Shown piece after piece: positions 35,211 to 52,139 of a stretch of 53,225 nt of DNA; the first letter of the stretch is position 1; every line of letters begins with the position of its first letter. This DNA is from an uncultured archaeon (lineage in GTDB: Archaea > Asgardarchaeota > Thorarchaeia > Thorarchaeales > Thorarchaeaceae), in NCBI GenBank assembly GCA_964631415.1, contig CAZVZC010000003.1, forward strand, positions 1-53,225. Reading direction: 5' to 3'. A program made the position numbers and the translations under genes. The notes beneath the pieces were generated by a model, which was not told the DNA's origin, did no database searches, and saw only the letters and a program-made list of their open reading frames with translations.

Positions 35211-36374
35211 TCACTGAAGGCTGGCGGCTAGAAGACCAACTACATCAAGGACGGCTATTCTGCTCCCAAGAAGGTCCTTCCCGGCATTGAGGTTATGCTC
35301 ACAGAACGGACACGAGGTGGCGATCACCTCCGCGCCAACCGCCTCTGCTGCCTTGATACGGTCTGCCGCGATTCTCTTGGCGAGATCAGGAGCAAACGAC
35401 CTCAGACCGCCACCGGCTCCACAACATATGGCCGCCTGTCTGTTAGGATCCATTTCAACAAGCTCGACGCCAGGAATGGCTCGAAGGACGTCGCGGGGGC
35501 TCTCATAGATGCTCAGTTCCCGTCCCAAGTGGCATGGGTCATGGTAGGTGACCTTTGTGACTTCCTTGAGCGGTTTCGGACGAATCCTGCCTTCCTTGAT
35601 CAGTTCCTGAACAAACTCGGTGATGTGTAAGACTGGCGGTAGCTCCAAGCCAAAGCGCTTGGGATAGTCGGTTTTCAGCGCTCTCAAGCATCCGGCACAC
35701 GAAACAATCACCTTCTCAGCTCCAGTTTCAGCTATAGACTCGACCAAACGGAGAGCATTGTCCTTGGCCTCGCTTATTCGTCCAGTCCTCAGCATGACCG
35801 ACCCGCAGCACGGCTCATTCTCCATGACTGAGAAATCCACCTTGGCCGCTCTCAGGACACGGGCTGTTGACTTGGCGACCTCGGGCAGCCTCAGCCCCGT
35901 TGTGCAGCCCACGAAGTACAGTGTCTTCCCTTTGGTGGGTATCCTGAACCCTAGCTCATGTACCCACTTGCGTTTCATAGCACTGTCTTCGGAATACGGG
36001 TTTCCTCTGGCTGCAATAGCTTCAGCAACAGAGTCGCGAGTCGCGTTAGGTATGCCAACAAGAGCTTCGCGGGTCTTCTCGATTGCGTCCTTTGCGTTGA
36101 ACTCTGCCGCGCAGATCTGAGTGCAGTTACCGCAGAGTGTGCAAGTGTACAGGGACTCAGCGTTCTCTGGCGTCCTGTCTAATGTACCATCGAGCAGAGC
36201 CAATGCGACCTGTACCTTCCCTCTCATGAAACTGGTTTCAAAACCACTTGAGTTCTTCCAAACAGGGCAGACGCCGTTGAAACCCTCCGCCTCATAGACA
36301 GCGTTCCGACAGATTCCGCATCTACGACATTGGAGAAGCTCCTCTCTGAGCTGGTCTAGGTCCACACTGGCCAT
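35211..36374 (-). CDS. Fe-S oxidoreductase (GlcF/HdrD-like, two 4Fe-4S + CCG domains)
   Basis: CRRCGIC, CTLCGNCTQIC, PCCG, YHDPCHLGR, CCGAGG and CPFC. Confidence 0.9.
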   Translation of the reverse strand: MASVDLDQLREELLQCRRCGICRNAVYEAEGFNGVCPVWKNSSGFETSFMRGKVQVALALLDGTLDRTPENAESLYTCTLCGNCTQICAAEFNAKDAIEKTREALVGIPNATRDSVAEAIAARGNPYSEDSAMKRKWVHELGFRIPTKGKTLYFVGCTTGLRLPEVAKSTARVLRAAKVDFSVMENEPCCGSVMLRTGRISEAKDNALRLVESIAETGAEKVIVSCAGCLRALKTDYPKRFGLELPPVLHITEFVQELIKEGRIRPKPLKEVTKVTYHDPCHLGRELSIYESPRDVLRAIPGVELVEMDPNRQAAICCGAGGGLRSFAPDLAKRIAADRIKAAEAVGAEVIATSCPFCEHNLNAGKDLLGSRIAVLDVVGLLAASLQ

Positions 36375-36375
36375 T

Positions 36376-37782
36376 TCACACACCTCCAATCACGCCCGGG
36401 TTCAGAATCCCTTTGGGGTCCAAGAGCTTCTTCAGTGATGCAATGAAGCTCACATAGTCCTCCATCTCGGAAACCCCGTCAGTCCAGTAGGGAGCCAACT
36501 TGAATGGGACTGCACCGGTCTTGAAGAGGCGCTGCGCCAGCTCCGCGTGGGCGTTTCTGGCCTTCTGCTCATCGTCTTCGTCGGCAGGATCAAAGAAGAG
36601 CATCGGGTAGAAATTGTAGGAGCCGTGGTCCGTCAGGAAACCGGCAGTATGACCCACGATACCGAACTTGTCCATGACCTCCCAGATCTCTTGAATCGAC
36701 TTGTGCCAGCTAACAGGCGGCTGATGGTGATACAGAATCCTCCAGTGCCACCCATGGGCGTACGAAGATCTCGCAAAAACCCACATTCGGTCTTCCCATT
36801 CACCCTTTGGAAGCTCAGAGATGCCAATGACCTCTCCTCCAATCTCTGTGCATATCCTCTTTGCTTCCTCGGCGTCACTCCGGAGCTGGTCTTCCCGCAA
36901 TCTTCCGATGGTCACTGAAACAGTAAACGGCGGCCACTCGTGTTTGGGAATACCATACTCATCACCAAGCATGTCCATGAAGAACTCGAGAATGCGCCCC
37001 TCGTATACGGATACGAACAGAGCATTGACATCATTCTCTCTGAGTTTTAGCAGGAACGTCTCCGCTCTAGAAACATCGTCAAAGCCGAAGGTGTTGTAGT
37101 AGAAATGGTGTATGCGTCTGAAGGTCTTGAGTGACACCTTGGTGATGATTCCAAAGCCACCGAGTGACCCGATGAACAGGCCTGTCAGGTCCGGGCCGAA
37201 TGCATACCTTATGAAGGGCCCAAGTGCATTGGGGTTTGCCTCAGAACCTGTCTGAATGACCTCTCCACTCGCGAGAACAACCTCGAGTCCCAGAACCATC
37301 TCCGCGATGCAACCATGTACGCTCGACCCTGGACCTGCTCCATTCACTGCAACATTCCCCGCCACCGTACAAACAAGGGATGACTCCGGGTAGACTGGCA
37401 CCCAGAGATTGTACGGGCTCAGGAACTTGTCCAACATACCAAAGGTCACTCCGGCACCTACGGTGACTGATCTGAGATCCTCGTATAGGCTAATCTTATC
37501 GAATCTCATGAGCTCGACAACGAGACTGTCCGGCTTGGGGATGACTTCACCCTGAAGGCTTGAGCCGCCGGACCTAGGAACCACAGTGATTCCATTCTCA
37601 TTGGCAAGTCTGATTATCCTCGAAACCTCTTCACAGTTTGCTGGGCGAACGACTGCCCCTGGCAATGTGGAGTCATAGCCTATAGAAGCAGATGCAGAGT
37701 AAGTGAGAAGGACATCCTTCCGCGTGGAAACATACTCATCACCCACAATCTCAGCTAGCTGTTTCACTATCCTCTGGTCCAT
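36376..37782 (-). CDS. FAD-binding oxidoreductase (VAO/PCMH, GlcD-like)
   Basis: PRSGGSS, TVAGNVAVNG, LFIGSLGGFGIIT and DPKGILNPG. Confidence 0.9.
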   Translation of the reverse strand: MDQRIVKQLAEIVGDEYVSTRKDVLLTYSASASIGYDSTLPGAVVRPANCEEVSRIIRLANENGITVVPRSGGSSLQGEVIPKPDSLVVELMRFDKISLYEDLRSVTVGAGVTFGMLDKFLSPYNLWVPVYPESSLVCTVAGNVAVNGAGPGSSVHGCIAEMVLGLEVVLASGEVIQTGSEANPNALGPFIRYAFGPDLTGLFIGSLGGFGIITKVSLKTFRRIHHFYYNTFGFDDVSRAETFLLKLRENDVNALFVSVYEGRILEFFMDMLGDEYGIPKHEWPPFTVSVTIGRLREDQLRSDAEEAKRICTEIGGEVIGISELPKGEWEDRMWVFARSSYAHGWHWRILYHHQPPVSWHKSIQEIWEVMDKFGIVGHTAGFLTDHGSYNFYPMLFFDPADEDDEQKARNAHAELAQRLFKTGAVPFKLAPYWTDGVSEMEDYVSFIASLKKLLDPKGILNPGVIGGV

Positions 37783-37809: not shown

Positions 37810-38136
37810 CTAGAAGATGTGACGTATCTTCATCAAATCACTCGCAGAGCCCTTGACCTTGAGCTTCCGAGTCAAGAGTGCGTTGGCAGCACTCATCTGC
37901 TCCAGGAACAGCTTCCGTATCGTGTCATCGTCACTCTCGATTCTCATATCCGGATTGTCAATCGCACCCAAATCCACCGTGATCTTGCTGTCCTTGACTA
38001 AGAAGTGATAGGTGCGTCCGTCCTTCAGAGTGAGCTGTGCGGTTTTCTGCCAGCCTTCGATTGCCTCGAGTGTCTTCTGGCGCTGTAACCCAACAGATAT
38101 TCTCTGTCGCATAAGCTCAAGCAGGTCTTCACTCAT
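37810..38136 (-). CDS. SCP2 sterol/lipid-binding domain protein
   Basis: PDMRI...ALLTRKLKVKGS..LMKI. Confidence 0.8.
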   Translation of the reverse strand: MSEDLLELMRQRISVGLQRQKTLEAIEGWQKTAQLTLKDGRTYHFLVKDSKITVDLGAIDNPDMRIESDDDTIRKLFLEQMSAANALLTRKLKVKGSASDLMKIRHIF

Positions 38137-38399: not shown

Positions 38400-39053
38400 C
38401 TACTTCTTTCTGTATTTCCTGACGATCTCGAGGAACTTTTTGACGTTCTCAGTTATTATGTCGTAGCGTCCCTCTTTGATGGCCTTGGAATCTGCTATCG
38501 CACTGCCTACTCCCAGAGCAAAGGCTCCGGCCTCGAGCAGCGGCCCGGCCGTTTGCAGGTCAACTCCTCCAGTCGGTATCAATGGTATGTGAGGAAGAGG
38601 AGCTCTGACCGCTTTGATGTACGCTGCTCCGCCCACCTCACCACATGGGAAGACCTTGACAGCATCAGCACCCCACGTATATGCTTGGAGTATTTCTGTA
38701 GGAGTCAGCGCGCCGGGGAAACACGGTTTTGCATACCTTCGAGAGATCTCAATCAGCTCTTTGGAGTACGAAGGAGCCACGATGAACTCGCTGCCAGCTA
38801 GAATGGCTCTTCGGGCAGTTTCCGGATCCAGCACGGTTCCTGTACCTACCAGAACCTTGTCGCCCACCTTCTCTGTCAGCTTCTGAACGACATCCGTAGC
38901 TCCGGGCACACTGAAAGTCACCTCGATGATGTTCACCCCTCCGTTGAGGAGTGCATCTGCAACCTTCATTGCGATATCAGCGGACTCCACTCTGATGATT
39001 GGAATCAGCGCTGTGTCATGTACTAGCTTCATTGCGTCTTGCTTGTCCCACAT
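38400..39053 (-). CDS. eda: KDPG/KHG aldolase
   Basis: IEVT, GTGTVLD, PGALTPTE, VKVFP (Schiff-base Lys) and PTGGV. Confidence 0.92.
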   Translation of the reverse strand: MWDKQDAMKLVHDTALIPIIRVESADIAMKVADALLNGGVNIIEVTFSVPGATDVVQKLTEKVGDKVLVGTGTVLDPETARRAILAGSEFIVAPSYSKELIEISRRYAKPCFPGALTPTEILQAYTWGADAVKVFPCGEVGGAAYIKAVRAPLPHIPLIPTGGVDLQTAGPLLEAGAFALGVGSAIADSKAIKEGRYDIITENVKKFLEIVRKYRKK

Positions 39054-39065
39054 TCTTGTTCTCAC

Positions 39066-40058
39066 CTACCTCTGAATGCGAAGCCCTGAAGCTCCTTTCA
39101 TCAGGCTCTCCACCTCGGACTTGTAGATGTAGGCAAGGTCACCGGGCACTGAGTGCTTCAGAGCGGACAAAGCAGCTCCGAACTCTACAGCTTTCTGAAG
39201 GTCCTTGAGTTCAAGGTAGCCGTAGATGAACCCGGCACTGCAGGAGTCACCTCCGCCCAGCCTGTCAACAATCTCAACATCGTAGGTCGGACTGCGGTAG
39301 ATTTTGCCCTTGGAGTAGGCAAACACCGACCACTTGTTCAGCCACACAAGTGGTGTTTCACGAAGCGTGATGACGACCGCTTCGAAGCCGAACTTGTCGG
39401 CGAGTTTCCTTGCCACCTCTTCATAGTCCTTGCCTTCAATACCATAGACGACCTTCGTATCCTCTTCTGTCGTGATCAGTATGTCGATCATCTTTGAGGC
39501 GGGTTCGGCGAAAGCCCTAGCCTGCTCCGGCGTCCAGAGCTTGCCACGATAGTTGACATCGAACGACACCTTGCATCCCTGCTCGTGCGCTATCCTGAGA
39601 GCCTCCTCTGTCGCCTTTGCGCAGTTGGGGCTCAAAGCAGGAGTGATCCCGCTTGTGTGAAACAGCCTCGTACCCTTGAGAATCTCGGACCAGCGAATCT
39701 CTCCGGGCTTCAGCTTACTGATTGCAGACTGTTCTCTGTCGTATATCACGCGCTGGCTTCTGGGGGCTGCACCGAACTCAACGAAGTAGACACCACAGCG
39801 ACTATTTGGGTCCCAGAGGACGTTTGATGTATCGACACCTTGCTCACGCGCCTTGTTCCGGATGAAGTGACCAATCGAGTTGTCGCCCAGCTTGGTCACA
39901 TAGGCCGTCCTTAGGCCCATCCTCGCACACGCGACAGCTACATTCATCTCAGCGCCGCCTGCATGCGCGTTGAAAGCAGTGGTCTGCTCAAAGCGCATGA
40001 AGTTGGGCGGCGATAACCTAAGCATCACCTCTCCAAAGGTTACAACGTCGAAACCCAT
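39066..40058 (-). CDS. kdgK: 2-keto-3-deoxygluconate kinase (PfkB family)
   Basis: FGEVMLRLSPP, GAEMNVA, FHTSGITPALS, DVNYRGKLW and VDRLGGGD. Confidence 0.88.
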   Translation of the reverse strand: MGFDVVTFGEVMLRLSPPNFMRFEQTTAFNAHAGGAEMNVAVACARMGLRTAYVTKLGDNSIGHFIRNKAREQGVDTSNVLWDPNSRCGVYFVEFGAAPRSQRVIYDREQSAISKLKPGEIRWSEILKGTRLFHTSGITPALSPNCAKATEEALRIAHEQGCKVSFDVNYRGKLWTPEQARAFAEPASKMIDILITTEEDTKVVYGIEGKDYEEVARKLADKFGFEAVVITLRETPLVWLNKWSVFAYSKGKIYRSPTYDVEIVDRLGGGDSCSAGFIYGYLELKDLQKAVEFGAALSALKHSVPGDLAYIYKSEVESLMKGASGLRIQR

Positions 40059-40128
40059 CGGTTCACACTCCGACAGTTTAACTGACCAGCACATCTGATG
40101 TCTTCATGTTAAAGCTGTCGCTGAAACC

Positions 40129-42489
40129 TCATGCGGTGCTGCCTTTGAACTCGGTGCGTGCGATGACCTCATCTTGAACGAATGGGTCAAGCTCAATGAA
40201 GTAGGCGCTGTATCCAGCAACCCTCACTATCAGGTTCCTGTGTTGGAGGGGGTGAACCTTCGCGTCCTCCAACGTATCCCTCGACAGCACATTGAACTGG
40301 ATATGCAGCCCGCCGAGATGGAAGTAGCCGTCGATGAGACCCATGAAGTTCTCGCGTCCTGCTTGCGAAGAGAAGATCTGCGGATTGAACTTCATGTTGT
40401 ACAGCGTGCCATTGAAACAGGCACCATGGTCCAGCTTGGCCACAGACTTCATAGCCGCCGTAGGCCCGTGAACGTCCCTGTTGTGTGCTGGTGAAACACC
40501 ATCAGACAGCATTACGCCTGCACGACGACCATCAGGCGTTGCACCCACACTTTCGCCCTGTGGAATGTACATTGAAACAGAGAACAGTGCAGCGTGATAC
40601 GGACCGTTTCTGGTCGTCATTCTGCTCTGCACTGATTTGCAGAAGGACTCCCCTATTCCACGAGCCAATGAGTCCACATGCTCTAAGTCATTGCCGAACT
40701 TGTCAGGATCATTCTCTAGCCTGACTCTGAGGTCCTCGTAGCCTTCGAAGTTCTTCGCCATTGCATCCAGCAGCTGACCCATCCCAACTCTCTTCTGCTC
40801 GAAGACATGTTTCCTCAACATCGAGAGTGAGTCGGTCGCTATCGCAATGCCCACTCCTTGGATGCCGCCGGCGTTGTACTTCGCACCTCCGTCCTGCATA
40901 GTACGGCCGCTCTCGACACATCCCTCCAGCAGTGCAGACATGAATGGGGTCGGCACGGCGCTGGCATGCACTTGCGCAGCCACGTGGTCGGCCCTAGTAA
41001 GCAAATCAATAGCATAGTCCAGCTGTTTTGCGAATGCATTCCAGAGCTGGTCAAAGGTGTTGAAATTCCGGGGGTCTCCCGTTTCAAGACCGACAGTCAT
41101 GCCCGACCGCGGGTCTCTTCCGTTGTTGAGTGTGACCTCCAGCACCTTGGGAAAGTTGACAAAACCTATGTTGGGCCTGACATCGGTCTTTCCTTCAACG
41201 ATGGGTTCAACACAGCCCAAGATTGAGTAGTCGTGTGCCTCAACTGAGTCAATCCCTTTCTTCAGCATCATTGGGACAATGACGCCGTCGTTGAACAGAC
41301 CTGGCATACCAAGACCCTTGGATATCACATCCACAACCTTGAACTTGATGTCCCTTGGGGTCTTCTCATGCCAGCGGAATGAAACTGTTGGCTGTGTGAC
41401 CCGCATGTTTGCTGTTGCCTCCAGCGCAAGCAGGGTCACCTCGTTTGTCATATCCTTGCCGTGAATATCCTGACCGCCAACAGTGAGATTCTGAAACATG
41501 GGGTAGCCTGCGAAGGCGACACTATAGTACTCGTCTCTCACCTTGATCACAGAAGAGAACTTGATCCACAGCATCTCAAGCAGCTCAAGGGCTCTCTCGC
41601 GGGTCGTTCGCCCAGCCTTGACGTCAGCTGAGTAGTAGGGGTACAAGTATTGGTCGAACCGTCCTGTTGATATCGAATGACCATTGCCCTCCGTCTGTAC
41701 AAGTAGATGGATGAACCAGAATGACTGTAGTGCCTCATGGAACGAGGTCGCAGGCTTCAAGGGGACTCGTTTGCAGATTCTCGCAATGTCCAGCAGCTCC
41801 TCCCTTCTCTGCGCATCGCGTTCTCCGCGTGCCATTCGTGATGCTACCTCGCTGAATCGTTCAGCAAAGCGGACTAGCGCGCTGACTTCGACCTCAACCG
41901 AATCATAGAAGCTGGTCTTCTCTTGGTTGCCTCTGCTCTTGGACTTGTACCCTTTGACCCTTTCAAGCACGTCTTCGAGACCCTTGTTGATTACTCTCCG
42001 ATAGTCCACGATGACATGCCCTATTCCTGTACCTGGCGCTCCAATCGTAAACAGCCCTGCCTTGGCAGCACGTCGCGCCTCCTCAGGCATCTTCTGTGCG
42101 CAGATCTCGGAAGTACTCTTGCCACTCCAGTAATGAAAGACTTCGCGGAGTTGCTCTTTGTCCTTCTCGCTGATCTCGAACTTCTCCGTCCGTCTCTTGT
42201 CGAACCTGTCTAGCTCCTTCTCAACCCATGTCCAGCTGTACTCGGGGAAGACCTGACAAGAGCGAAGAGTCGGTCCCATGTTCCCAACTATGAGCTCATC
42301 AGGCTCGATGCGAATGGTCATGTTGTCAAGTACGTAGGCAAACGCCTTCGCAAGCCTCATTCTGAGGGGCTCGTCCTCGTGCTCCCGAAGGCACCGAGTG
42401 AAGAGATAGGCTCTCTCTGAAGAAAGAGTTGGACGGGAATCCAGCATGCGTTCTCTCATGAGAGACGTCCGTGAAGTCATGAGCCGCAC
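40129..42489 (-). CDS. Glycyl radical enzyme, dehydratase/eliminase type
   Basis: Single-Cys loop GCVEP, Gly loop RVAGYS, GIGH, NGHSIS..RFDQY and FAGYPMFQNL. Confidence 0.9.
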   Translation of the reverse strand: MRLMTSRTSLMRERMLDSRPTLSSERAYLFTRCLREHEDEPLRMRLAKAFAYVLDNMTIRIEPDELIVGNMGPTLRSCQVFPEYSWTWVEKELDRFDKRRTEKFEISEKDKEQLREVFHYWSGKSTSEICAQKMPEEARRAAKAGLFTIGAPGTGIGHVIVDYRRVINKGLEDVLERVKGYKSKSRGNQEKTSFYDSVEVEVSALVRFAERFSEVASRMARGERDAQRREELLDIARICKRVPLKPATSFHEALQSFWFIHLLVQTEGNGHSISTGRFDQYLYPYYSADVKAGRTTRERALELLEMLWIKFSSVIKVRDEYYSVAFAGYPMFQNLTVGGQDIHGKDMTNEVTLLALEATANMRVTQPTVSFRWHEKTPRDIKFKVVDVISKGLGMPGLFNDGVIVPMMLKKGIDSVEAHDYSILGCVEPIVEGKTDVRPNIGFVNFPKVLEVTLNNGRDPRSGMTVGLETGDPRNFNTFDQLWNAFAKQLDYAIDLLTRADHVAAQVHASAVPTPFMSALLEGCVESGRTMQDGGAKYNAGGIQGVGIAIATDSLSMLRKHVFEQKRVGMGQLLDAMAKNFEGYEDLRVRLENDPDKFGNDLEHVDSLARGIGESFCKSVQSRMTTRNGPYHAALFSVSMYIPQGESVGATPDGRRAGVMLSDGVSPAHNRDVHGPTAAMKSVAKLDHGACFNGTLYNMKFNPQIFSSQAGRENFMGLIDGYFHLGGLHIQFNVLSRDTLEDAKVHPLQHRNLIVRVAGYSAYFIELDPFVQDEVIARTEFKGSTA

Positions 42490-42523
42490 TCTTCCCCAAA
42501 CCTATTAACAGTTCACTATGCGG

Positions 42524-43696
42524 TCATTTCTGTTTTCTCAGAAGCTTTGGAAGGTATGTGTCGAGACGCCGAAGGGCCTCCTCAATTGTTTCTGTCGACA
42601 CAGCATAGCAGAGCCGCAGGTAACCCTCACCATATTTCCCGAACCCCGAGCCATGGACTGTCACGACGCCAGTATCTTCCAGTAGCTTCACAGCGAGGTC
42701 ATATGACTTCATCTTGTAGGCAGCAACATCGGGAAAGACGTAGAACGCACCAGCTGGGGAATCCACACGTATGCCTTGAATCGACTGGAGACCCTTGGTG
42801 ATAAGGTCGCGTCTCTTCCTGAAGGTGCTGAGCATCTGCTCCACACATTCCTGCGGACCATTCACCGCTGCTTCTGCAGCCTTCTGTGAGATTGCAGTAG
42901 GCATAGACAGGACGTGCTCCTGCATCCTGGTCATTGCCGCTACGACTTCCTCGGGGCCAATGGCAAACCCAATTCTCCATCCTGTCATTGCATAGCTCTT
43001 CGAGAATGAGAACAGTGTGACAGTTCTCTCCTTCATCCCGGGCAGTGAACCGATGAACAGCGGTTTCTCACTAACGTATCTGAACTTCTCATACGCTTCA
43101 TCTGCAAGGACAATGATGTCTTTCTTGATTGCCAAGTCCGCTATCTTCCTCAGCTCTGAGTTCGAGATCACTCCCCCAGTGGGGTTGTTCGGGTAGTTAA
43201 TGACAAGAAGCTTGGTCTTGCTCGTGATGAGTCGCTCTATGTCTTCGGCCTTCACTGCGAAGCCGTTCTCTCTCTTCTGCTGGAATGGCACTGGAACGCC
43301 GCCTGTGAGCATGATGTGAGCGTAGTGGCTGACAAATCCTGGATCGGGATAGAGCACCTCGTCGCCGGGGTTCACGAGAGCTAGGTTCGCCAACAGAAGA
43401 GAACCCATGCCACCGGCAGTACAGATGACCTCCTTGGCGGGGTCGGCATCGATCCCGTTTTCCCTCTTTGCCTTTTTGGCAAGAGCTTCCCGGACTTCGA
43501 TAAGTCCTGCATTGTGAGTGTACTTAGTGTAGCCATCATCCAAAGCCTTCTTGCCAGCATCCTTGATGAACTGGGGAGTATCGAAGTCCGGCTGACCCAC
43601 AGTCAGGTCAAGGATGTTAGGACGCCCTCGAGCCATATTGTACATCTTGCGAATCTCAGAAGCAGGAACGAGTTTGGTTCTGTCAGCGAGCTTCAT
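42524..43696 (-). CDS. PLP-dependent aminotransferase class I/II
   Basis: GQPDF, NYPNNPTG, DEAYE and SFSKSYAMTGWRIG. Confidence 0.92.
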   Translation of the reverse strand: MKLADRTKLVPASEIRKMYNMARGRPNILDLTVGQPDFDTPQFIKDAGKKALDDGYTKYTHNAGLIEVREALAKKAKRENGIDADPAKEVICTAGGMGSLLLANLALVNPGDEVLYPDPGFVSHYAHIMLTGGVPVPFQQKRENGFAVKAEDIERLITSKTKLLVINYPNNPTGGVISNSELRKIADLAIKKDIIVLADEAYEKFRYVSEKPLFIGSLPGMKERTVTLFSFSKSYAMTGWRIGFAIGPEEVVAAMTRMQEHVLSMPTAISQKAAEAAVNGPQECVEQMLSTFRKRRDLITKGLQSIQGIRVDSPAGAFYVFPDVAAYKMKSYDLAVKLLEDTGVVTVHGSGFGKYGEGYLRLCYAVSTETIEEALRRLDTYLPKLLRKQK

Positions 43697-43875
43697 CGGC
43701 AACACCTGCGCTGCTTGGTAAGCCCGAGGCCATTGCGCCTCCTCTTAAAGGTACTCGATTGTGAGCTGAAGGTTCAGTCCTAGGCACGGGCCAAGTCATG
43801 GGCTTTGTCGTTCCGCATCACATTTAAGATAGCCGACACAGGTTCCCGCAAAGGACCGGTCACACGGTGGTGTCC

Positions 43876-44345
43876 ATGAAGACTCCCACAGCAGATGACG
43901 TGCGAAAGAACAGCATGGTCGTGGTCGCCAGTGCTCATGCGGTGTACGTTGAGGCGGCGCGCAAATCGGCAGGCAAGAAAGGTCTGAAAGCGATTGGCGA
44001 AGCGAATCGGATTCACGGGTTGGAGCTGGGCAACGCAGGAATCAAGGAAGGCGGACTGAGGAAAGGAGACCTCAAGTCCATCTTTGGTTTCTTCGACTCA
44101 GCACATCCCTACTTCGGGTTCGATCTTGAACTACTGCAGGCATCTGGCAATGTACTTGAAATGTAAGTCACGCACTGCCCGTGGCTTGAAACCTTCAAGG
44201 CAAAAAACGCTGGTGAAGACATAGCGAATGGGTGTGTCGAATGGACGAGGGCATCGGGCAGGCCGTTGACCCAGATTTGAAGATGACACTGACGAAGTGC
44301 ATGATGCGTGGAGATGACCACTGTATCTACCGTTACTCCAAATGA
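43876..44345 (+). pseudogene. V4R / ATC-hydrolase family gene with in-frame TAA (44164) and a 1-nt deletion (~44224)
   Basis: Repairing both lesions gives ...LEMxVTHCPW...DI(C)EWVCRMDEGIGQAVDP..LTKCMMRGDDHCIYRYSK, the family's Cys pattern. Confidence 0.75.
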
Positions 44346-44376
44346 AACAACGCACTTCAATGCCTTAGGTGATGAT

Positions 44377-45045
44377 ATGTCAAGCAAGAAGAGCAACCCG
44401 ATAGATCGATGCATGAGACTCTATGTGGCGGCACTTTCCGACGCAGCAGACGAGATTGGAATAGGCCGCGTATGCATGGACAGCAGGATCGTACCTGTGA
44501 CAAAGAACAAGACTGTGGTTGGTTTCGCGAGACCCGCGAAGCTAGCGAAGTCTGCCGTGCGACAGCCATATGACGAGGTCCAGCTCGAACGATTCATGAC
44601 CATAGCAACACGTGCAAAGAGAGATGACGTCGTCGTCATCCAGATGTCAGGAGCAACTGACTGCTCTGGATGGGGACAGATCATGACGAAGATCTCTTCG
44701 TCTATGGGGATTCGTGGAGCAGTTGTTGACGGCACCGTGAGAGATGTGGATGAAACAGATAGAATCGCGTTCCCTGTGTTCGCTCGAGGACGCCACCCCG
44801 GTACCGTTCGGGCTAGGCTAGATATCGAGTCAGTTGGGGAGCCAATGGAGTGTGGCGGCGTGACCGTACGCCCCGGTGATCTTGTATTCGGTGATGGTGA
44901 TGGCGTGGTAGTGATACCAAGCGGTCGGGTCGAAGAGATACTCACCGCCGCTGAGCGTGTCGCGGCAACGGACAAGTGGTGGTGCTCGATGCTCGACCAG
45001 GGCAAGGACCCCCAAGAGCTGCACAAGCAGAAGCCGATTCCGTAA
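44377..45045 (+). CDS. RraA / HMG-CHA aldolase family protein
   Basis: ALSDA, WGQIM, DGTVRD and PGDLVFGDGDGVV. SD AGGTGA precedes ATG 44377. Confidence 0.88.
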   Translation: MSSKKSNPIDRCMRLYVAALSDAADEIGIGRVCMDSRIVPVTKNKTVVGFARPAKLAKSAVRQPYDEVQLERFMTIATRAKRDDVVVIQMSGATDCSGWGQIMTKISSSMGIRGAVVDGTVRDVDETDRIAFPVFARGRHPGTVRARLDIESVGEPMECGGVTVRPGDLVFGDGDGVVVIPSGRVEEILTAAERVAATDKWWCSMLDQGKDPQELHKQKPIP

Positions 45046-45132: not shown

Positions 45133-46260
45133 TCAGCTGATTGGGTACCTGCCTTTCTTATCGGCATAATCGTACATGTAGACTATCTTTTCAGGTGTCG
45201 AGTCATCCTGAATGTTGTGTGCTGGAGCCAGTATGTAGCCTCCACCAGGTGCCAGCGCCCTCAGTCGCCTGTCAATCTCGTCCTTGACATCTTTCATAGT
45301 TCCCATAGAGGACATTGCGTGCTGAAGATCTATTCCACCGTGGAAGGTCAGTCTGCTTCCATACTTCTGCTTCAGAAGAGCCGAGTCCATTCCCTTCGCC
45401 AAAGGCTGGATCGGGTTGAGTATGTCAACGCCCACTTCGATGAGATCGTTGATCATAGGCTCTACCGCTCCGCAGCTGTGAAACAGCATCTTCACATCGG
45501 GAGCTCTCTTGTGAATGTCGCTGTAGATTCTCATGTGACGTGGCTTGACGAGCCGCCTATACATAGTAGGACTCATAATCAGACCTGTTTGATGCCCAAG
45601 GTCGTCACCGACCTGCACAAGGTCTAGGTACTCCCCCACTTCATCGAGGAACACACGGTTCATCTCAAGTGCCAAGTCCATGCACTTGTCCATCATGGCT
45701 TCCGCGAGCCTAGTCCTCTCCACAAGATCTACCAGAAACTTGTCGAATCCTCTCATGTAATGGGCACACATCTCGAACACGCCCCAGGGGCCCCCCACCA
45801 TTCCAGCAACTGCGTAATCAGTCTCATCATGTAGATGTTTCGCCCACTCGGTGACGCCTTCCATCCTTGAGGGATCGTCAGGGTCCATCCATTCATAGTT
45901 CTCGACTTGGTCGACGTCCGTGAAGTCGGCCCAAGGGTAGTGTACGACTTCCCAGTAGGGCCCGAACCACTTTCCCCGAAATCCCATCTCGGAGTCCGTG
46001 CTCCCGTCAGGGTAGGTCCTAGCCTTGAACGACGACGAAGCGTGCATGTACACTCTTCTGAAGTCTAGATGTAGCCTCCGTAGTATCTCTTCCGAGATTA
46101 GCCACGAGCTCATTATGCCCCACTCTTGTGTTTCGGGTGCCGTAATCTTCAGGTAGTCACGAACCTTGGCGTACGCCGCTGGAGTGATCCAGAAGTCCAG
46201 TGGCACTCTGTCAGGCTCTTCATGATTGACTATATGGTGGAATCTTTCTCGAGGCTTCAT
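45133..46260 (-). CDS. Uroporphyrinogen decarboxylase / MtaA-CmuA family protein
   Basis: EEPDRVP, GDDLG, FHSCG, LNPIQP and GGGYILAPAHNIQ. Confidence 0.85.
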   Translation of the reverse strand: MKPRERFHHIVNHEEPDRVPLDFWITPAAYAKVRDYLKITAPETQEWGIMSSWLISEEILRRLHLDFRRVYMHASSSFKARTYPDGSTDSEMGFRGKWFGPYWEVVHYPWADFTDVDQVENYEWMDPDDPSRMEGVTEWAKHLHDETDYAVAGMVGGPWGVFEMCAHYMRGFDKFLVDLVERTRLAEAMMDKCMDLALEMNRVFLDEVGEYLDLVQVGDDLGHQTGLIMSPTMYRRLVKPRHMRIYSDIHKRAPDVKMLFHSCGAVEPMINDLIEVGVDILNPIQPLAKGMDSALLKQKYGSRLTFHGGIDLQHAMSSMGTMKDVKDEIDRRLRALAPGGGYILAPAHNIQDDSTPEKIVYMYDYADKKGRYPIS

Positions 46261-46394: not shown

Positions 46395-47777
46395 ATGGTT
46401 GACGTAGCGAGAATCACTGGCTTGTTGAAGAAGGCGGTTGGCCCAAACCGTGTGACAGACCGGGACTTTGACATTCTGGCTTATAGCAGGGACGTGAGCC
46501 CAGCTAGACAGAAGTTGGCGACACACATAGTAATGCCTCAGTCACGGGAAGAAATCCAAGCTGTCCTGCGCATTGCCAATGAGAATGACGTCCCGGTGTA
46601 CATCCGCGGTGGCGGCACTTCACACTGGGATGCCTACTTGCCTCAAGAGCCCGGAATCATGCTTGACATGGGTCAGATGAACCGGGTAGTTGAGATAAAC
46701 GAACGCGATCTCGCGGCAACGGTCCAGCCGAATTGCACATGGGCCAAGTTGGATAACGAACTCAGGAAGAGAGGGCTGACCTACCTCTGTAGTGAGGCGG
46801 GAGGACCCGCCATGACAATCGGGGGATCGGTCATGAAGGCAGGTGGAGGACCCTCTGGTACAGCCAAGTTTGGGTTTCACGGCAATGCAGACATACTGAC
46901 GCTTGAGATGGTTCTGCCCAATGGTGATGTCGTGCAGACGGGGTCCGCAGCTTGGCCCAGCGCAGGGAAGTTCAAGAGACAATGCCTTGGACCAGATCTT
47001 GCTGGGCTTTTCATCGGTGCTGAGGGGACACTGGGCATCTGCACAGAGCTGACACTCAGAGTCCGTCCGGCCACTGATATCAGAGAGCGGATGGTGGCCA
47101 CCATGAAGAGTCTGGACGATGTGATTGAGCTGGGTCACTTCGTCAACAGAAATGTCGGAGATGAGTATCTCCAGGGCTTCTATCTCTGGGTTGACCCATC
47201 TGCACCTGACGTCTTCATCGTGATGATGGACGTGTTCGGATATGAGAAAGAAATCGTGGAACACAGAAAGAATCGTGTTCTCGCGAAGATTAAGGAACTG
47301 GGTGGAGCAATCGGAGACCGTGCGGCTGCTGATGACTACTACGGACGGATACTCACAGGATTGACAGAGATATTCACAGCTGGGGTCTGGCATTTCTTTG
47401 GCTCCGGCTCTTTGAGGATAGACGACATCAAGTTCCTCTACCGGGTGTGGCGTGACGAGCTCATCGGCAAGAGAGGCTACAAGAAGGCTGGTTTTGGAGG
47501 ACAGGTTTTGCCGCGTGACTGGCTGGCCTTCATGGTGACCAACTATCGCGAGCCGGGCGAGTGGGACGAGATGATTAGGATATCAGACGAGATCAACGAC
47601 ATAGTCTTGAAGGGACCCGTGGTCCCCTACGGGATTGGTGGTCGGGACGGTCTCAGAGCCTTTGTGGAGGCACGTGATACGGGATACTACAGACTGCTGA
47701 AGACCATAAAGAAAGCTGTCGATCCCATGGATATTCTACAACGGGGCATATTCATCCGGAAGGAGGAATTGGAATGA
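46395..47777 (+). CDS. FAD-binding oxidoreductase (GlcD-like)
   Basis: RGGGTS, TIGG and LFIGAEGTLGICTE. Confidence 0.88.
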   Translation: MVDVARITGLLKKAVGPNRVTDRDFDILAYSRDVSPARQKLATHIVMPQSREEIQAVLRIANENDVPVYIRGGGTSHWDAYLPQEPGIMLDMGQMNRVVEINERDLAATVQPNCTWAKLDNELRKRGLTYLCSEAGGPAMTIGGSVMKAGGGPSGTAKFGFHGNADILTLEMVLPNGDVVQTGSAAWPSAGKFKRQCLGPDLAGLFIGAEGTLGICTELTLRVRPATDIRERMVATMKSLDDVIELGHFVNRNVGDEYLQGFYLWVDPSAPDVFIVMMDVFGYEKEIVEHRKNRVLAKIKELGGAIGDRAAADDYYGRILTGLTEIFTAGVWHFFGSGSLRIDDIKFLYRVWRDELIGKRGYKKAGFGGQVLPRDWLAFMVTNYREPGEWDEMIRISDEINDIVLKGPVVPYGIGGRDGLRAFVEARDTGYYRLLKTIKKAVDPMDILQRGIFIRKEELE

Positions 47778-48970
47778 GAATCGAACAGTATCACGATATG
47801 ATCTATGCGTGCGGCCGGTGCAACTTCTGTCGTGGTAGCGATTTCAACGAGAGATGCCCACAGCTGTTCACTCAGCGTTGGGAGTCGTCAACGGCGAGGG
47901 GTCGGATGGCAATTGCTCGTGCGATTCTCGAGGGAAAGCTGGACTACACTGAAGACCTCAGAGAGAGAGTATTCGGTTGCTTTCTGTGCAGCAGGTGCAG
48001 AGAGGAATGCAAGAAGGCGGCCAAGATAGACGTAGTAGCTATTACGAGAGCGATGCGTGCCGACTTCTCGGACAAGGGCATCGGTGCGCCTGATGATGGC
48101 CGCCGGATGGCTGAAACGATGTTGCAGAAGAGAAACATCTTCGGGGATTCGTCCTCCGAACACACAAAGTGGGCTGCAGGAATCAAGTTTCAGAAAGGAT
48201 CTGGAACGCTCTTCTTCCCAGGATGCCTCGCGAGCCATCGATTCAAGGAGAAGACAGGAATCCTCGTCAGCGTTCTTCAGGCCGCGGGGTACAAGCTTGA
48301 CTTCCTCGGTGAGGACCAGACTTGTTGTGGAACGCCCCTGTGGATCACTGGAAATGTCAAGCAGGCAAAGCAGTGGGTCCAAGACTATGTAAAGAAGCTG
48401 AAGGCACGTGGGGTAAAGGAGATCATTACACCCTGCCCTAGCTGCTTCAGAGCCCTAGATGAGGAATACCCTCAGCTCCTCGGCCTAAAGGAGTCCCCAT
48501 TCAAGGTTAGACACACAAGCCAAGTGTTAGAGGAGATTGTGCGCCAGAAGAAGCTCGCCCTCAAAAAGCGTGTGAATAATGTTGTGACCTACCATGATCC
48601 CTGTGAGATCGGACGTTATCGGGGTATATACGAGCCCGCCAGAAATGTTCTAGCGGCCATTCCGGGTGTGACCTTCAGAGAGATGCCCAGGAATCGCGAC
48701 CAAGCATTCTGCTGCGGCGGAGGAGGAGGAGTGAAGATCATGTATGGCGACTATTCCCAGCAGGTTTCCGTTGAGAGGATAACGGAGGCTTTGAAGACAG
48801 ATGCCTCTATCGTCGCAACCATATGCCCGGCGTGCGAATTGAACCTGACTCATGCCGCTTATGAAACCAATGCACACATTCGAGTGTTGGACGTCGCTGA
48901 GATCCTAGCAGTGGCAGCCGGACTAGCGAGCGATGAGATCCTAGATCCAGACTACATTCCTGAAGATTGA
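47774..48970 (+). CDS. Fe-S oxidoreductase (GlcF/HdrD-like)
   Basis: CGRCNFC, CFLCSRCREEC, CCG, YHDPC and CCGGGGG. ATGA overlap. Confidence 0.9.
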   Translation: MRIEQYHDMIYACGRCNFCRGSDFNERCPQLFTQRWESSTARGRMAIARAILEGKLDYTEDLRERVFGCFLCSRCREECKKAAKIDVVAITRAMRADFSDKGIGAPDDGRRMAETMLQKRNIFGDSSSEHTKWAAGIKFQKGSGTLFFPGCLASHRFKEKTGILVSVLQAAGYKLDFLGEDQTCCGTPLWITGNVKQAKQWVQDYVKKLKARGVKEIITPCPSCFRALDEEYPQLLGLKESPFKVRHTSQVLEEIVRQKKLALKKRVNNVVTYHDPCEIGRYRGIYEPARNVLAAIPGVTFREMPRNRDQAFCCGGGGGVKIMYGDYSQQVSVERITEALKTDASIVATICPACELNLTHAAYETNAHIRVLDVAEILAVAAGLASDEILDPDYIPED

Positions 48971-49037: not shown

Positions 49038-49355
49038 CTACCCACCGACAGCAGCAATCATGAATACGATAAGGTCGCCTTCGGCGAGCTCGGTCTTCTC
49101 CCCCTTGCGAGCGACCATGTTCTGACCGTTCACGATGACTATTGTTTCCCGTTTCAGAGTCCTCCTCCGAGAATCATCGAGATAGACCTTGAACCTCTCT
49201 GGCTGGCGTTCGTACAATGCATCAATCAGATCTCGAACTGTCGCATCTGGCTTCGTTTCAAAGGGGAACATATCGTGCTCCTTGTACTTCTGCCCCTTGT
49301 TCATCAGTTTCACGAAGACCTGTGCCAACACCACTCGCTCCGCTCTATTGAGCAA
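49038..49355 (-). CDS. MoaD/ThiS/SAMP-family ubiquitin-like protein
   Basis: TVRDL, IVNG, TELAEGD and C-terminal VGG. Start uncertain. Confidence 0.85.
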   Translation of the reverse strand: MLNRAERVVLAQVFVKLMNKGQKYKEHDMFPFETKPDATVRDLIDALYERQPERFKVYLDDSRRRTLKRETIVIVNGQNMVARKGEKTELAEGDLIVFMIAAVGG

Positions 49356-49568
49356 CAGCCGTCATCTTAAAGTGAACATAAAGATTATATTAACATGCCG
49401 AACAGCTCAAGGGCACTGGGGCATTACGTTGACCCATTCGATGGCCGCTGTGGGGGCCTCAGAAGGTCTAGCCTCAGTTGACATGAGCATGGAAGACGCG
49501 AATCTCAGCTTCAGCATGCCTACGCGGCTCAGGGTTGAAGCAGAAAAAAGCAATGACGGTGTGACCAA

Positions 49569-50351: not shown

Positions 50352-50549
50352 AGACTTCGGGACACAGAACCTTTGTACTGTGGCTCCAGATGAGTCTGTA
50401 CGATGTCGATATATGCGCAAACGTGTCTTTTTGTCGTAGGGCATCTGGTTTCTTAACCGCATTAACTCACGAGTCCTATGGTTTTAAATACAGGTTGTTG
50501 CCATTAGACCTCCCATCACGGAACTCCATAAGAATCCGTGAAAGTAAAA

Positions 50550-52139
50550 ATGGAGAAGAACGCAATGAGCGGAGATCAAAAGATGCTCTTCGTCAGAGAG
50601 AGCTCAGGCCTCGTGAAGGAGGTCGGCACAGGCTTTGCCCTGCTGCTTCCGATTGCGCTCACGCTGGGTCCATGGTTCCACTACGGTGGTGTTTACATCT
50701 CAACTTGGTACCCAGGTGCGCACATCACTGCGATGTTTGCAATCGGCTCCTTTACAGTGTTCTTTGAGGCGCTGGCACTGATGTGCTTGATGCTTTCGAT
50801 GCCGAGATCAGGAGCGTCCTACTACTTCACAGGAAGAGGACTCAGCCCGATATTCGGTGTGATGGAGGGCTGGCGAAGTGTGATAACGAATCCAGTCTTC
50901 AGGGGCACTGGCAGCTTCTTTGCTGTGCAGGTCTTTGTAGGCGGACTGACAGTTGTAGGTGCCGCCACAGGCGATGCATTTGTGCAGGGCTTGGCAGTTA
51001 CCCTAGCCGCACCCATCCCACTGTGCTTAACGGCAATTGCGATGATCCTGGTTGGATTTGTCTTCAGCTACATGAGCGTCAAGTGGCTGGGCTGGTTTGT
51101 GATCATACTTGGACTGGTCAACATCCTCGCCCTAGTAGTCGCTGACGTGGTAATGCTCGCGACTCCACATGCCTCCCTTCAAGGCATATGGGACACCGTC
51201 TTTGGTGGAGGCGCCTACGCCGGGGTTGTTACCGCTGGCGGTGACATTGGTGCATATACTAACTTCAACTGGAGTGCAGTCGGTCCCGCACTGATTCTGA
51301 CTGTCGGTATGATGTGGCCTTACCTCATTATGCCAGTTGCAGGTGAGGTTGCCCAGCCAAGCAAGAACATACCACTCTCAAACGTGGGTGGTTGGGCAGG
51401 TATCGCCTTCTTCTTCCTGCTGTCAGGCTTTGCCCTAGAGAGCATGATGGGGACATTCCTGTACTCAAACAACATAGCCGCGTACACTGCCACTGCGGGC
51501 TCTGTCTTCCCAGGATTCGGCAACTTCGCTGCCGTCGTCCTTGCAGCCCAAGGCAGTCCTCTGGTGTGGTTCGTCATCCTCTGTCCGATATACGCAAGCG
51601 TGCTTGACTCACCCAGCAACGCCCTATGGGTGACTAGGCCATTCCACTCAATGGCTATGGACCGCTTCTGCCCAGCAGCTTTCGCAAGTGTCCACCCGAA
51701 GTACCACGTACCACATGTTTCGCTGTGGTTCTGGCTAATACTGACCATTGCAACGACAGTCTACGCTACCATCCTACAGGTTGTCACCGGCACGGGTCTG
51801 AGTGCGCTTGTGGGTGTCGGCTTCACGTACGTGTTCATAAGGTGGCAGATGGCACTCGCTGCAGTCAGCTTGCCATACTACCGCCCGACGCTATGGGAGC
51901 GCAGTGGTGCTTGGATGGTGCCCGGCCTCAAAGTCCCGCTGATTTCATTCGGTGGCTTGATTTCTGGCGCCATATTCTTCTATGCAATGATCGCCTTCCA
52001 AGCCACAGCCGTATACGAGATTCTTTTCACGGTGATCGTGTACGTCTGGGGTCAGATCATGTACATATACTACGGTGCGAAGAACAAGGCGAAGGGCATC
52101 GAGCTCGGAGCTATCTTTGGACAGCTACCACCTGAGTAG
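50550..52139 (+). CDS. APC family (amino acid/polyamine/organocation) permease
   Basis: LFVRESSGLVKE, MPRSGASY, AGEV, MAMDR..P..F..VHPKY and C-terminal LPPE. Confidence 0.9.
   Translation: MEKNAMSGDQKMLFVRESSGLVKEVGTGFALLLPIALTLGPWFHYGGVYISTWYPGAHITAMFAIGSFTVFFEALALMCLMLSMPRSGASYYFTGRGLSPIFGVMEGWRSVITNPVFRGTGSFFAVQVFVGGLTVVGAATGDAFVQGLAVTLAAPIPLCLTAIAMILVGFVFSYMSVKWLGWFVIILGLVNILALVVADVVMLATPHASLQGIWDTVFGGGAYAGVVTAGGDIGAYTNFNWSAVGPALILTVGMMWPYLIMPVAGEVAQPSKNIPLSNVGGWAGIAFFFLLSGFALESMMGTFLYSNNIAAYTATAGSVFPGFGNFAAVVLAAQGSPLVWFVILCPIYASVLDSPSNALWVTRPFHSMAMDRFCPAAFASVHPKYHVPHVSLWFWLILTIATTVYATILQVVTGTGLSALVGVGFTYVFIRWQMALAAVSLPYYRPTLWERSGAWMVPGLKVPLISFGGLISGAIFFYAMIAFQATAVYEILFTVIVYVWGQIMYIYYGAKNKAKGIELGAIFGQLPPE

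Follow-up and report, generated by a model that had tools for sequence, protein, structure and literature searches.

Introduction

Among glycyl radical enzymes (GREs), those that catalyze 1,2-elimination carry a CxE motif in their Cys loop; the mechanism of one of them, glycerol dehydratase (GD), has been described (PMC13450708). GD of Clostridium butyricum (DhaB1; 1R8W/1R9D) and two propanediol dehydratases (PDs), from Roseburia inulinivorans (5I2A) and Raoultella planticola (GRM3 PDH, 9RCO), are the solved enzymes most similar to the archaeal GRE analyzed here. The DHPS dehydratase HpfG is likewise a GD-like eliminase; it acts on an anionic diol and is encoded in sugar-cleavage clusters. In extended sulfoglycolysis clusters, HpfG works on the reduced aldolase product (PMC11489063). 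In concept, the closest system is that of Escherichia coli YbiW/PflD, GREs that prepare a sugar derivative for a downstream aldolase by cleaving a C–O bond in 1,5-anhydrohexitol-6-phosphate (PMC13450708). Unlike the enzyme proposed here, YbiW/PflD are bacterial, are classed as isomerases, act on sugar phosphates and are coupled to an FSA-type aldolase.

An earlier note on the DNA described below proposed that a GRE encoded beside a 2-keto-3-deoxygluconate (KDG) kinase (KdgK) and an Eda-type aldolase may produce a 2-keto-3-deoxy acid for these two enzymes, an activity that its author did not know of for any GRE. This agrees with a June 2026 review, which lists no GRE acting on sugar acids and no characterized archaeal PFL-like GRE, the known functions all being bacterial (PMC13450708). 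Our literature search on sugar-acid GREs and on Entner-Doudoroff (ED) or KDG metabolism in Thorarchaeota found nothing relevant. If the hypothesis holds, the GRE would share its product and its place upstream of KdgK and Eda with Edd/IlvD, the enolase-superfamily gluconate dehydratase, UxuA and UxaA; unlike a GRE, these classical dehydratases have unrelated folds and use non-radical Fe-S or metal chemistry.

Gene organization of the operon

The whole stretch of DNA analyzed, hereafter the window, comprises 53,225 nt of contig CAZVZC010000003.1 (GCA_964631415.1) from an uncultured Thorarchaeaceae archaeon (Asgard), the genome of which is 2.16 Mb and 85% complete. An aminotransferase, the GRE, KdgK and Eda are encoded in this order by four real ORFs, all on the minus strand and separated by 34, 34 and 0 nt (Table 1). 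The one-directional arrangement with short gaps that had been described for this region was thus confirmed, and the families were assigned with Pfam and NCBIfam. The aminotransferase ORF starts at 43705, and position 43696, previously taken as its end, is the next in-frame ATG. No NCBIfam equivalog was reached for the aminotransferase; among solved structures its closest relatives are 1gd9 and 1dju, both AspAT/AroAT structures from Pyrococcus (E 4e-97), and its gene adjoins that of the GRE in 23 of 25 orthologous loci.

Table 1. Genes of the operon and of the surrounding block (positions in the window)
Feature	Position	Strand	Remarks
GlcD-like FAD dehydrogenase (36376-37782) and CCG/Fe-S subunit (35211-36389)	35211..37782	-	PF01565, PF02913, PF02754
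Small SCP2-domain protein	37810..38136	-	PF02036; present in 18/25 loci
Eda-type KDPG/KHG aldolase	38400..39065	-	221 aa; PF01081 151 bits
2-Keto-3-deoxygluconate kinase (PfkB family)	39066..40094	-	342 aa; PF00294 150 bits
Glycyl radical enzyme (GRE)	40129..42489	-	786 aa; PF02901 722 bits, PF01228 116 bits
Aminotransferase, class I/II (AspAT/AroAT-like), PLP	42524..43705	-	393 aa; first gene of the operon; PF00155 262 bits
RraA-like class II aldolase or oxaloacetate decarboxylase	44308..45045	+	PF03737 109.5 bits; divergent from the operon
URO-D/MtaA-like protein	45133..46260	-	PF01208; kept in orthologous loci
Second pair of GlcD-like FAD dehydrogenase and CCG/Fe-S subunit	46395..48970	+	conserved in loci
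APC-superfamily permease (amino acid/polyamine/organocation type)	50538..52139	+	PF00324 48.6 bits

Family placement and active site of the GRE

The GRE, an oxygen-sensitive enzyme, consists of a PFL-like barrel domain (PF02901) and a C-terminal glycine radical domain (PF01228), in which the glycine loop RVAGYS (residues 756–761) is exact in 22 of 25 sequences and variant in the remainder. All motifs quoted in the earlier note were found, namely (GRE numbering) GIGH at 155–158, NGHS at 269–272, FAGYPMFQNL at 326–335, GCVEP at 425–429 and LFSVSMY at 635–641. The GCVEP loop, invariant in 24 orthologues, contains a single Cys and conforms to CxE; the enzyme is not a PFL, as had been argued from this loop, and it scored 173 bits against the PFL model TIGR01255 (cut-off 994). 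A likeness to B12-independent glycerol and propanediol dehydratases rather than to CutC or HypD had also been suggested, and the best solved relative is indeed GD (1r8w, E 1.6e-203), followed by the two PDs; YbiW/PflD gave a weaker match (E 2e-157, 528.6 bits). In NCBIfam, the GRE exceeded the cut-off of TIGR01774 (766 bits versus 678) and reached no equivalog: the best-scoring one, HpfG (626 bits), fell far under its cut-off of 1000, and HypD (610/1100), PRK09983 (604/1109), CutC (566/1050) and HpsG (561/1000) were also below theirs. At 50% identity the GRE forms a cluster of its own, with 41–43% identity to the nearest other clusters (43% to the PD-like representative P0123), and no characterized enzyme shares that cluster. 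The GRE belongs to a new, uncharacterized clade that is confined to Thorarchaeota.

The alignment with GD runs end to end at an identity of roughly 40%, as read from the alignment, and the catalytic set of GD is retained, i.e. C433, E435, H164, H281, S282 and the radical glycine G763 (GD numbering). H158 of the GRE corresponds to the acid/base residue H164, and H271/S272 on the NGHS strand correspond to H281/S282; all are conserved in the orthologues. Since the Cys loop, H164, H281/S282 and the glycine loop are shared with GD, the same direct-elimination chemistry is plausible for the GRE. The two enzymes differ in the substrate pocket, where W445R, H446P, D447N, Y640F and N645Y (GD numbering) are invariant in 24/24 orthologues, and where the GD loop NYYYN is shortened to AP-GT in all 24. 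Three residues of C. butyricum GD that we take to be ligands of the glycerol C3-OH, Y339, S642 and D447, are replaced by F332, V638 and N440, so that the GD ligand set is absent. F332 and V638 form the hydrophobic pair that marks PD against GD, and both PDs have F and V at these positions. In contrast to both PDs, in which the hairpin after the Cys loop reads GWHD, the GRE has VRPN at this site, and its gene is accompanied by neither a microcompartment shell nor an aldehyde/alcohol dehydrogenase partner. The remark that the pocket strand differs therefore stands, and the pocket as a whole departs from both glycerol and propanediol dehydratases. In HypD, the same hairpin bears Tyr450, which binds the substrate carboxylate (PMC7077986).

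These similarities bear on an alternative that we consider unlikely, in which the GRE, as a dehydratase or lyase, would act on a small vicinal diol or on a diol-sulfonate, either on a side branch or after the aldolase; the substrate would be 1,2-propanediol, a deoxy-acid diol of three to four carbons or a compound resembling DHPS. The KDG for KdgK and Eda would then have another origin, such as unsaturated uronates acted on by a reductase. This alternative is consistent with GD and the two PDs being the best solved relatives, with the PD-like F332/V638 pair and with HpfG as the top equivalog; the pocket Arg could hold a sulfonate or carboxylate group at a distance of three to four carbons from the diol, and HpfG sets a precedent for a GRE inside a sugar-cleavage cluster (PMC11489063). 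One lineage, moreover, has an intact GRE away from kdgK. It is opposed by the replacement of W445, H446 and D447, all conserved in GD and both PDs, by the shortening of the Tyr-rich loop and by the low HpfG score. Furthermore, no aldehyde dehydrogenase/reductase, microcompartment shell or sulfite/sulfonate exporter genes were found in the block and, unlike for HpfG, no sulfoglycolysis genes lie nearby; GAP, the product of KDPG cleavage, is no GRE substrate.

KdgK, Eda and other sources of KDG

The nearest solved relatives of KdgK are the Thermotoga maritima KDG kinase 2afb (E 2e-80) and 1v19 (E 9e-41). Y89, Y103, R105, I134, R167 and the GxGD Asp of Thermus thermophilus KDGK, which are presumably its KDG-binding residues, are aligned and identical in KdgK. 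The protein scored 305 against an NCBIfam equivalog cut-off of 440, and its true start is probably an internal Met near 40058. Eda exceeded the cut-offs of both TIGR01182 (183.7 versus 156.05) and PF01081 (151 versus 27.8), and its VKVFP segment fits what we take to be the Schiff-base lysine motif. Its best natural solved relative is the T. maritima KDPG aldolase 1wa3, and the whole genome contains one copy. Judged by their sequences, KdgK and Eda are bona fide members of their families. Enzymes of the Eda type double as KHG aldolase and oxaloacetate decarboxylase.

Searches of the genome (2.16 Mb, 85% complete) gave no match for IlvD/Edd, UxuA, UxaA/GarD, KduI, GntP or KdgT, and the sole MR_MLE match genome-wide was enolase itself. 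The lack of IlvD/Edd and of enolase-family dehydratases that had been reported for the window thus extends to the whole genome at this completeness. IlvD/Edd occurs in only 5 of the family's 46 genomes, and UxuA was above the cut-off in none of the 46. Because the genome has no known source of the substrate of KdgK and Eda, the GRE may make it by an undescribed reaction.

Conservation of the gene cluster

Of 25 orthologous loci in further genomes of this family, 24 share the order aminotransferase–GRE–KdgK–Eda, with GRE identities of 65–76%, and the order was seen again in named Thorarchaeota MAGs. Such conservation indicates that the arrangement did not arise by chance, and the synteny of the GRE with kdgK and eda is conserved. 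Neither of the genomic findings that the earlier note had named as refuting its proposal, grouping with a characterized enzyme and a lack of conserved synteny, was thus observed. At least 12 genera keep the gene order at protein identities down to 65%; gene order in archaea generally decays quickly. In the g4 genomes, a 3.4-kb sensor kinase gene is inserted between GRE and KdgK, and the cluster has not dispersed.

In the family sample, a GRE orthologue (58–76% identity) is listed for 32 genomes; exactly these genomes also have Eda, and 12 genomes lack both. The expected co-occurrence was therefore observed, but it is confounded, because gain and loss affect an entire block of ~17 kb, which includes the URO-D-like gene and the permease gene. 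No URO-D-like orthologue was found in five GRE-negative family genomes (93–98% complete), and the permease is present in 21/21 GRE/Eda-positive and 0/11 negative family genomes sampled. Since these two genes show the same pattern and the genomes are related, the co-occurrence of GRE and Eda is not independent evidence of a shared function. Two cases depart from the general picture. In the first (G055), 3 stops have made the GRE a pseudogene and Eda is frameshifted; neither the orphan-type activase nor the permease was found there. In the second (L079), an intact GRE orthologue adjoins a thermosome gene, and kdgK is absent from the surrounding 5 kb.

Mere adjacency, that is, an independent GRE without a shared pathway inside a lineage-specific, vertically inherited block, is the explanation to which we give the least credence. 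One family supplies all orthologues, and shared descent may partly explain the synteny; the block, functionally unrelated genes included, is present or absent as a unit; and the GRE was relocated in one lineage (L079). A look-alike arrangement teaches the same caution: in G025, which belongs to a different family, KdgK and Eda are preceded by an HgdAB-like pair together with two activator ATPases and an HpcH aldolase. We considered this cassette as convergent support for a radical dehydratase and rejected it as a chance adjacency; not one of the 80 best metagenome loci with an HgdAB-like cassette has KdgK, Eda or HpcH. Weighing against mere adjacency at the thorarchaeal locus are the co-directional genes with 34-nt gaps, the survival of their order at 65% protein identity in at least 12 genera and through the sensor kinase insertion, and the joint loss or breakage of GRE, Eda, activase and permease in G055.

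Flanking genes and transport

Downstream of Eda, the SCP2 gene opens a second co-directional unit after 263 nt. The GlcD/CCG pair that follows is of the D-2-hydroxyacid dehydrogenase type and reached no NCBIfam equivalog; it is conserved across loci, and its GlcD gene is duplicated in some. On the other side of the operon, the RraA-like gene adjoins that of the aminotransferase in most loci. The permease, which Atlas places in APC permease clusters (score 0.98), is the sole transporter encoded in the block; no transporter for sugar acids was identified. In 14 genomes the permease gene is on the contig of the cluster, 1.5–16 kb away.

These neighbors suggest another reading, which we regard as quite unlikely: the block would serve the catabolism of an amino acid, or of an amino-sugar acid, that the APC permease imports. 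Nitrogen would be removed by the aminotransferase or by the GRE, as a HypD-like enzyme or C–N-lyase, and Eda and the RraA-like protein would serve as KHG-type 4-hydroxy-2-oxo acid aldolases, a division of roles that we think equally improbable. Eda-family and RraA-like enzymes cleave acids of the 4-hydroxy-2-oxoglutarate type and decarboxylate oxaloacetate. The operon begins with an aminotransferase gene, the permease gene is syntenic and shares the block's pattern of occurrence without exception, and the GlcD/CCG pairs could oxidize released glycolate, D-lactate or D-2-hydroxy acids. However, a clear KDG kinase with intact binding residues would be without a role in a KHG route, and the GRE has the diol-type NGHS/His set rather than that of HypD (Asp278-type), the HypD model giving 610 versus a cut-off of 1100. 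The permease is assignable to the level of the APC superfamily only, and block-level inheritance can account for its co-occurrence.

GRE activases

Three activases in the genome (C81, C24 and C10) scored above the TIGR02494 cut-off. Unlike the situation for GD, which also has a bacterial host and another operon, no activase gene adjoins that of the GRE: the window contains none, and in all 25 loci the 8 kb around the GRE lack one. Orthologues of the unpaired C10 activase are also present in genomes that are negative for this GRE, where they adjoin a paralogous GRE (e.g. in G069); C10 is thus a candidate rather than an assigned partner of the GRE.

Discussion

The best reading of these data, which we hold tentatively and at somewhat short of an even chance, is that the GRE is a radical sugar-acid dehydratase feeding KdgK and Eda. 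The GRE would be a working 1,2-eliminase of the glycyl radical type, and a radical-SAM activase whose gene lies in another part of the genome would activate it in trans. It would supply a 2-keto-3-deoxy sugar acid, which KdgK would phosphorylate and Eda would cleave to pyruvate and a triose phosphate; substrate, product and flux direction are inferred here. In the proposed mechanism, the Cys426 thiyl radical would abstract hydrogen from the carbinol carbon that adjoins the carboxylate, namely C2 in a hexonate or similar acid, and deprotonation of the C2 hydroxyl by Glu428 would give a ketyl radical. The neighboring C3 hydroxyl, or possibly an amino group, would be protonated by His158 and leave, and hydrogen would return from Cys426 to the α-keto radical, yielding KDG or a closely related compound. 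A larger anionic substrate may be accommodated and bound by the invariant hairpin with Arg438 and Asn440, together with the shortened, Tyr-poor loop.

Several observations count against this radical route. In an aldonate complex, F332 and V638 would face a hydroxylated C4, which they would fit poorly, and an aldonate route needs neither the aminotransferase, the first gene of the operon, nor an APC-type permease. In L079 the GRE is intact and lies away from kdgK and eda. Further points on this side are the lack of an activase gene close to the GRE, the inheritance of the block as a whole, and the KHG aldolase and oxaloacetate decarboxylase activities of Eda-type enzymes. KDG may also come from unsaturated uronates by way of a simple reductase. 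That Thorarchaeota possess a "radical Entner-Doudoroff-type" entry, in which the GRE turns an aldonate or amino-aldonate into KDG for KdgK and Eda, is in our judgment possible, if doubtful.

If this proposal is true, the enzyme would be the first GRE with demonstrated activity on a sugar acid, and for the first time a function would be assigned to an archaeal PFL-like GRE. A family already rich in anaerobic chemistry would gain a new reaction. It would also explain how KdgK and Eda are used without a known dehydratase in Asgard archaea that are abundant in sediments, and it would change models of carbon flow for the Asgard archaea, the relatives of eukaryotes.

Gene organization around the glycyl radical enzyme

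The finding sits on contig C3 of a 2.16-Mb genome (81 contigs, 85% complete). The gene order described in the earlier note is real: four co-directional ORFs are separated by short gaps of 34, 34 and 0 nt, respectively, and their families were confirmed. A second co-directional unit, consisting of SCP2, a GlcD-like FAD dehydrogenase and a CCG Fe-S subunit, lies 263 nt 3′ of the operon. Divergent genes upstream of the operon encode an RraA-like aldolase, a URO-D/MtaA-like protein and a second GlcD/CCG pair (GlcD2-CCG2), and an APC-type permease gene is located approximately 1.6 kb beyond that pair. Between GlcD2-CCG2 and the permease, within the co-inherited block described below, are two ORFs (203 and 144 aa) that match no family (window 49189-50351). 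The remaining window genes are housekeeping genes, encoding RadA, PheRS, topoisomerase VI, an eRF1/Pelota-like protein and ABC transporters. The topoisomerase VI region (window 5619-10039) looks unusual. A 510-aa ORF lacking any Pfam match precedes an ORF of 226 aa whose sole domain is the Topo VI-B transducer domain, and next comes Topo VI-A (705 aa), which carries helix-hairpin-helix domains at its N terminus; the B subunit may be split and the A subunit extended.

Genes of the operon containing the glycyl radical enzyme (GRE), with window positions
Gene	Position	Strand	ORF length	Family assigned by
Aminotransferase	43705..42524	minus	393 aa	Pfam + NCBIfam
GRE	42489..40129	minus	786 aa	Pfam + NCBIfam
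PfkB kinase	40094..39066	minus	342 aa	Pfam + NCBIfam
Eda	39065..38400	minus	221 aa	Pfam + NCBIfam

Family and active-site pocket of the GRE

The GRE combines a PFL-like barrel with the RVAGYS glycine loop and a Cys loop, GCVEP, that has a single Cys, and all of the motifs cited in the earlier note are present where they had been placed. The only NCBIfam model that it passed was the broad subfamily TIGR01774 (766; cut-off, 678), and its scores were well short of all equivalog cut-offs: HpfG (626/1000), HypD (610/1100), PflD-type (604/1109), CutC (566/1050) and PFL (173/994). Its top solved relatives were C. butyricum glycerol dehydratase (GD; 1R8W, E 1.6e-203) and the propanediol dehydratases 5I2A, from Roseburia, and 9RCO, the Raoultella GRM3 enzyme (PMC12756279). 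When compared with 1.84 billion representatives of a library clustered at the 50% identity level, the GRE clade formed one cluster (representative P0024, 67% identical), and the next clusters were just 41-43% identical. The GRE therefore clusters with no characterised enzyme, which leaves standing the earlier proposal that it may make a 2-keto-3-deoxy acid from a sugar acid or amino-sugar acid. The closest proteins and loci were labelled Candidatus Thorarchaeota, and a few Hermodarchaeota or Promethearchaeota, so that the source is an uncultured Asgard archaeon. The GRE represents a new, lineage-specific clade, predicted to be of the 1,2-eliminase type. A June 2026 review covers six C-O eliminases (GD, propanediol dehydratase, HpfG, HypD, HypG and HpzG), three C-S lyases, CutC and, as isomerases, HplG, YbiW and PflD, and it states that every characterised PFL-like GRE is bacterial (PMC13450708). 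Neither a sugar-acid GRE nor a Thorarchaeota operon of the aminotransferase-GRE-KdgK-Eda type was described in any paper that our literature search retrieved.

In the GD mechanism, Cys433 takes the hydrogen, Glu435 deprotonates O1 and His164 protonates the departing O2 (PMC13450708). Residue-by-residue alignment to GD showed that all of these groups are kept in the GRE, as C426, E428 and H158, and that H281/S282 and the radical Gly (GD numbering, here and below) are likewise kept. Two replacements, Y339 to F and S642 to V, both correspond to the propanediol dehydratase state; that the GRE works on a side branch, dehydrating a small or sulfonated diol, is an alternative that we consider unlikely. 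Further replacements are W445 to R, H446 to P, D447 to N, Y640 to F and N645 to Y, and the GD loop FTVGNYYYNGVGH reads FTIGAP-GTGIGH in the GRE, with three tyrosines gone. Across 24 orthologues (65-76% identity) these states vary little or not at all, and they were never combined in any of approximately 140 neighbouring cluster representatives. The substrate carboxylate of HypD is bound by Tyr450, on the hairpin that follows the Cys loop (PMC7077986). Because the GRE has an invariant Arg/Asn at this type of hairpin and a roomier loop, we infer that the pocket points to a larger, anionic substrate, still with a vicinal hydroxyl or leaving-group pair.

KdgK, Eda and the supply of 2-keto-3-deoxygluconate

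Judged from their sequences, KdgK and Eda are genuine. The top solved relative of the kinase was T. maritima 2-keto-3-deoxygluconate (KDG) kinase (2afb, E 2e-80), and Y89, Y103, R105, I134, R167 and the GxGD aspartate of T. thermophilus KDG kinase are all conserved in it. The aldolase passed the eda model, was closest to T. maritima KDPG aldolase and is the sole PF01081 gene in the genome. IlvD/Edd, UxuA, UxaA/GarD, KduI, GntP and KdgT were not found, which at 85% completeness does not mean absent, and the single MR_MLE match in the genome is enolase. Across the family, IlvD/Edd occurred in 5 of 46 genomes and UxuA above cut-off in none, many of the 46 being 95-99% complete. KDG could also arise from unsaturated uronates through a reductase route. 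The rarity of IlvD/Edd, which was not found in this genome and occurs in few of its family, is also relevant to how these archaea make branched-chain amino acids.

Activases and other associations with Eda

The genome contains four GREs (on contigs C81, C28 and C24, and in the window) and three activases (on C81, C24 and C10); the loci on contigs C81, C28, C24 and C10 are L001-L003 and L009-L012. The C81 and C24 GREs each have an adjoining activase, whereas the C28 and window GREs have none, and no activase was detected within 8 kb of the GRE at any locus examined. The C10 activase stands alone, and its unpaired type is also present in GRE-negative genomes.

A second, patchy GRE-Eda association is found in family f9, where a different GRE clade and a different Eda lie ≤6 kb apart in 5 of the 11 clade-bearing genomes (L072:6285-10606 in G177; L073:9995-15826 in G174). 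Its members (837-871 aa, ~30% identical to the window GRE) have a GCVD Cys loop, no NGHS motif and their own activase; L073 also carries an FGGY (XylB/GntK-like) kinase, a 2-hydroxyacid dehydrogenase and an MBL-fold gene, and L072 an MFS_2 sugar transporter. In G025 of family f18 (L071:2266-10624), a KdgK-Eda pair of the same type as that in the window (54-58% identical) is preceded by a cassette. The cassette comprises an HgdAB-like pair (2-hydroxyacyl-CoA dehydratase), two activator ATPases of the BcrAD/BadFG kind and an aldolase of the HpcH/HpaI kind. This cassette was discarded as a candidate, and its position looks accidental: the adjacency occurred in 0 of the 80 best metagenome loci, though the cassette is common there.

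Conservation and co-inheritance of the block

The synteny on which the earlier proposal depended is conserved, as KdgK and Eda follow the GRE in 24 of the 25 orthologous loci fetched. The aminotransferase precedes the GRE in 23, and the 24th locus with KdgK-Eda ends inside the GRE. The majority of the 25 also have the SCP2-GlcD-CCG unit and the divergent RraA, URO-D and GlcD2-CCG2 genes, and the same arrangement was observed on named MAG contigs. In genus g4, a PAS histidine kinase gene is inserted between GRE and KdgK, with the cluster still held together; this multi-PAS kinase (1143-1147 aa; L063:10608-14051 and L061:4339-7770) could be a sensor of the pathway's substrate. In a 201-genome phylum sample, GRE matches of 58-76% identity were confined to f1, the window's own family, and the next matches were ≤41%. 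The f1 genomes listed with a GRE orthologue are the same 32 that have Eda, and 12 have neither, the GRE-negative set including four (G155, G161, G170 and G188) with only a weak GRE match of unstated identity.

Because of two exceptions, in one lineage (loci L088, L079 and L070:7721-10608), the link between the GRE and kdgK-eda is strong but not obligatory. In G055 (97% complete), the aminotransferase, KdgK and Eda genes are adjacent without the GRE, Eda is split over two frames, and the GRE copy, interrupted by three stop codons, adjoins a thermosome gene (L088:6001-8346); this genome yielded no match for either a C10-type activase or the permease. The Guaymas contig L079 (552-2900) carries an intact GRE at the same site beside the thermosome gene, and the surrounding 5 kb contain no kdgK. 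That the GRE and KdgK-Eda are merely co-located is, with the synteny above, distinctly improbable.

The APC permease is syntenic in 14 genomes and, in a second sample, was present in 21/21 GRE/Eda-positive versus 0/11 negative f1 genomes; the URO-D-like gene was not found in five GRE-negative genomes (93-98% complete). Since both genes share the presence pattern of GRE and Eda, the whole block of ~17 kb is the unit of gain and loss. The perfect GRE/Eda co-occurrence therefore cannot be counted as independent evidence, and neither can related genomes. The block, which includes an aminotransferase and this permease, might be an amino-acid or amino-sugar-acid module, a reading that we regard as rather improbable. 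The most economical reading, which we put forward tentatively, is that in these archaea the GRE makes the substrate of KdgK by dehydrating or deaminating a sugar acid through radical chemistry.
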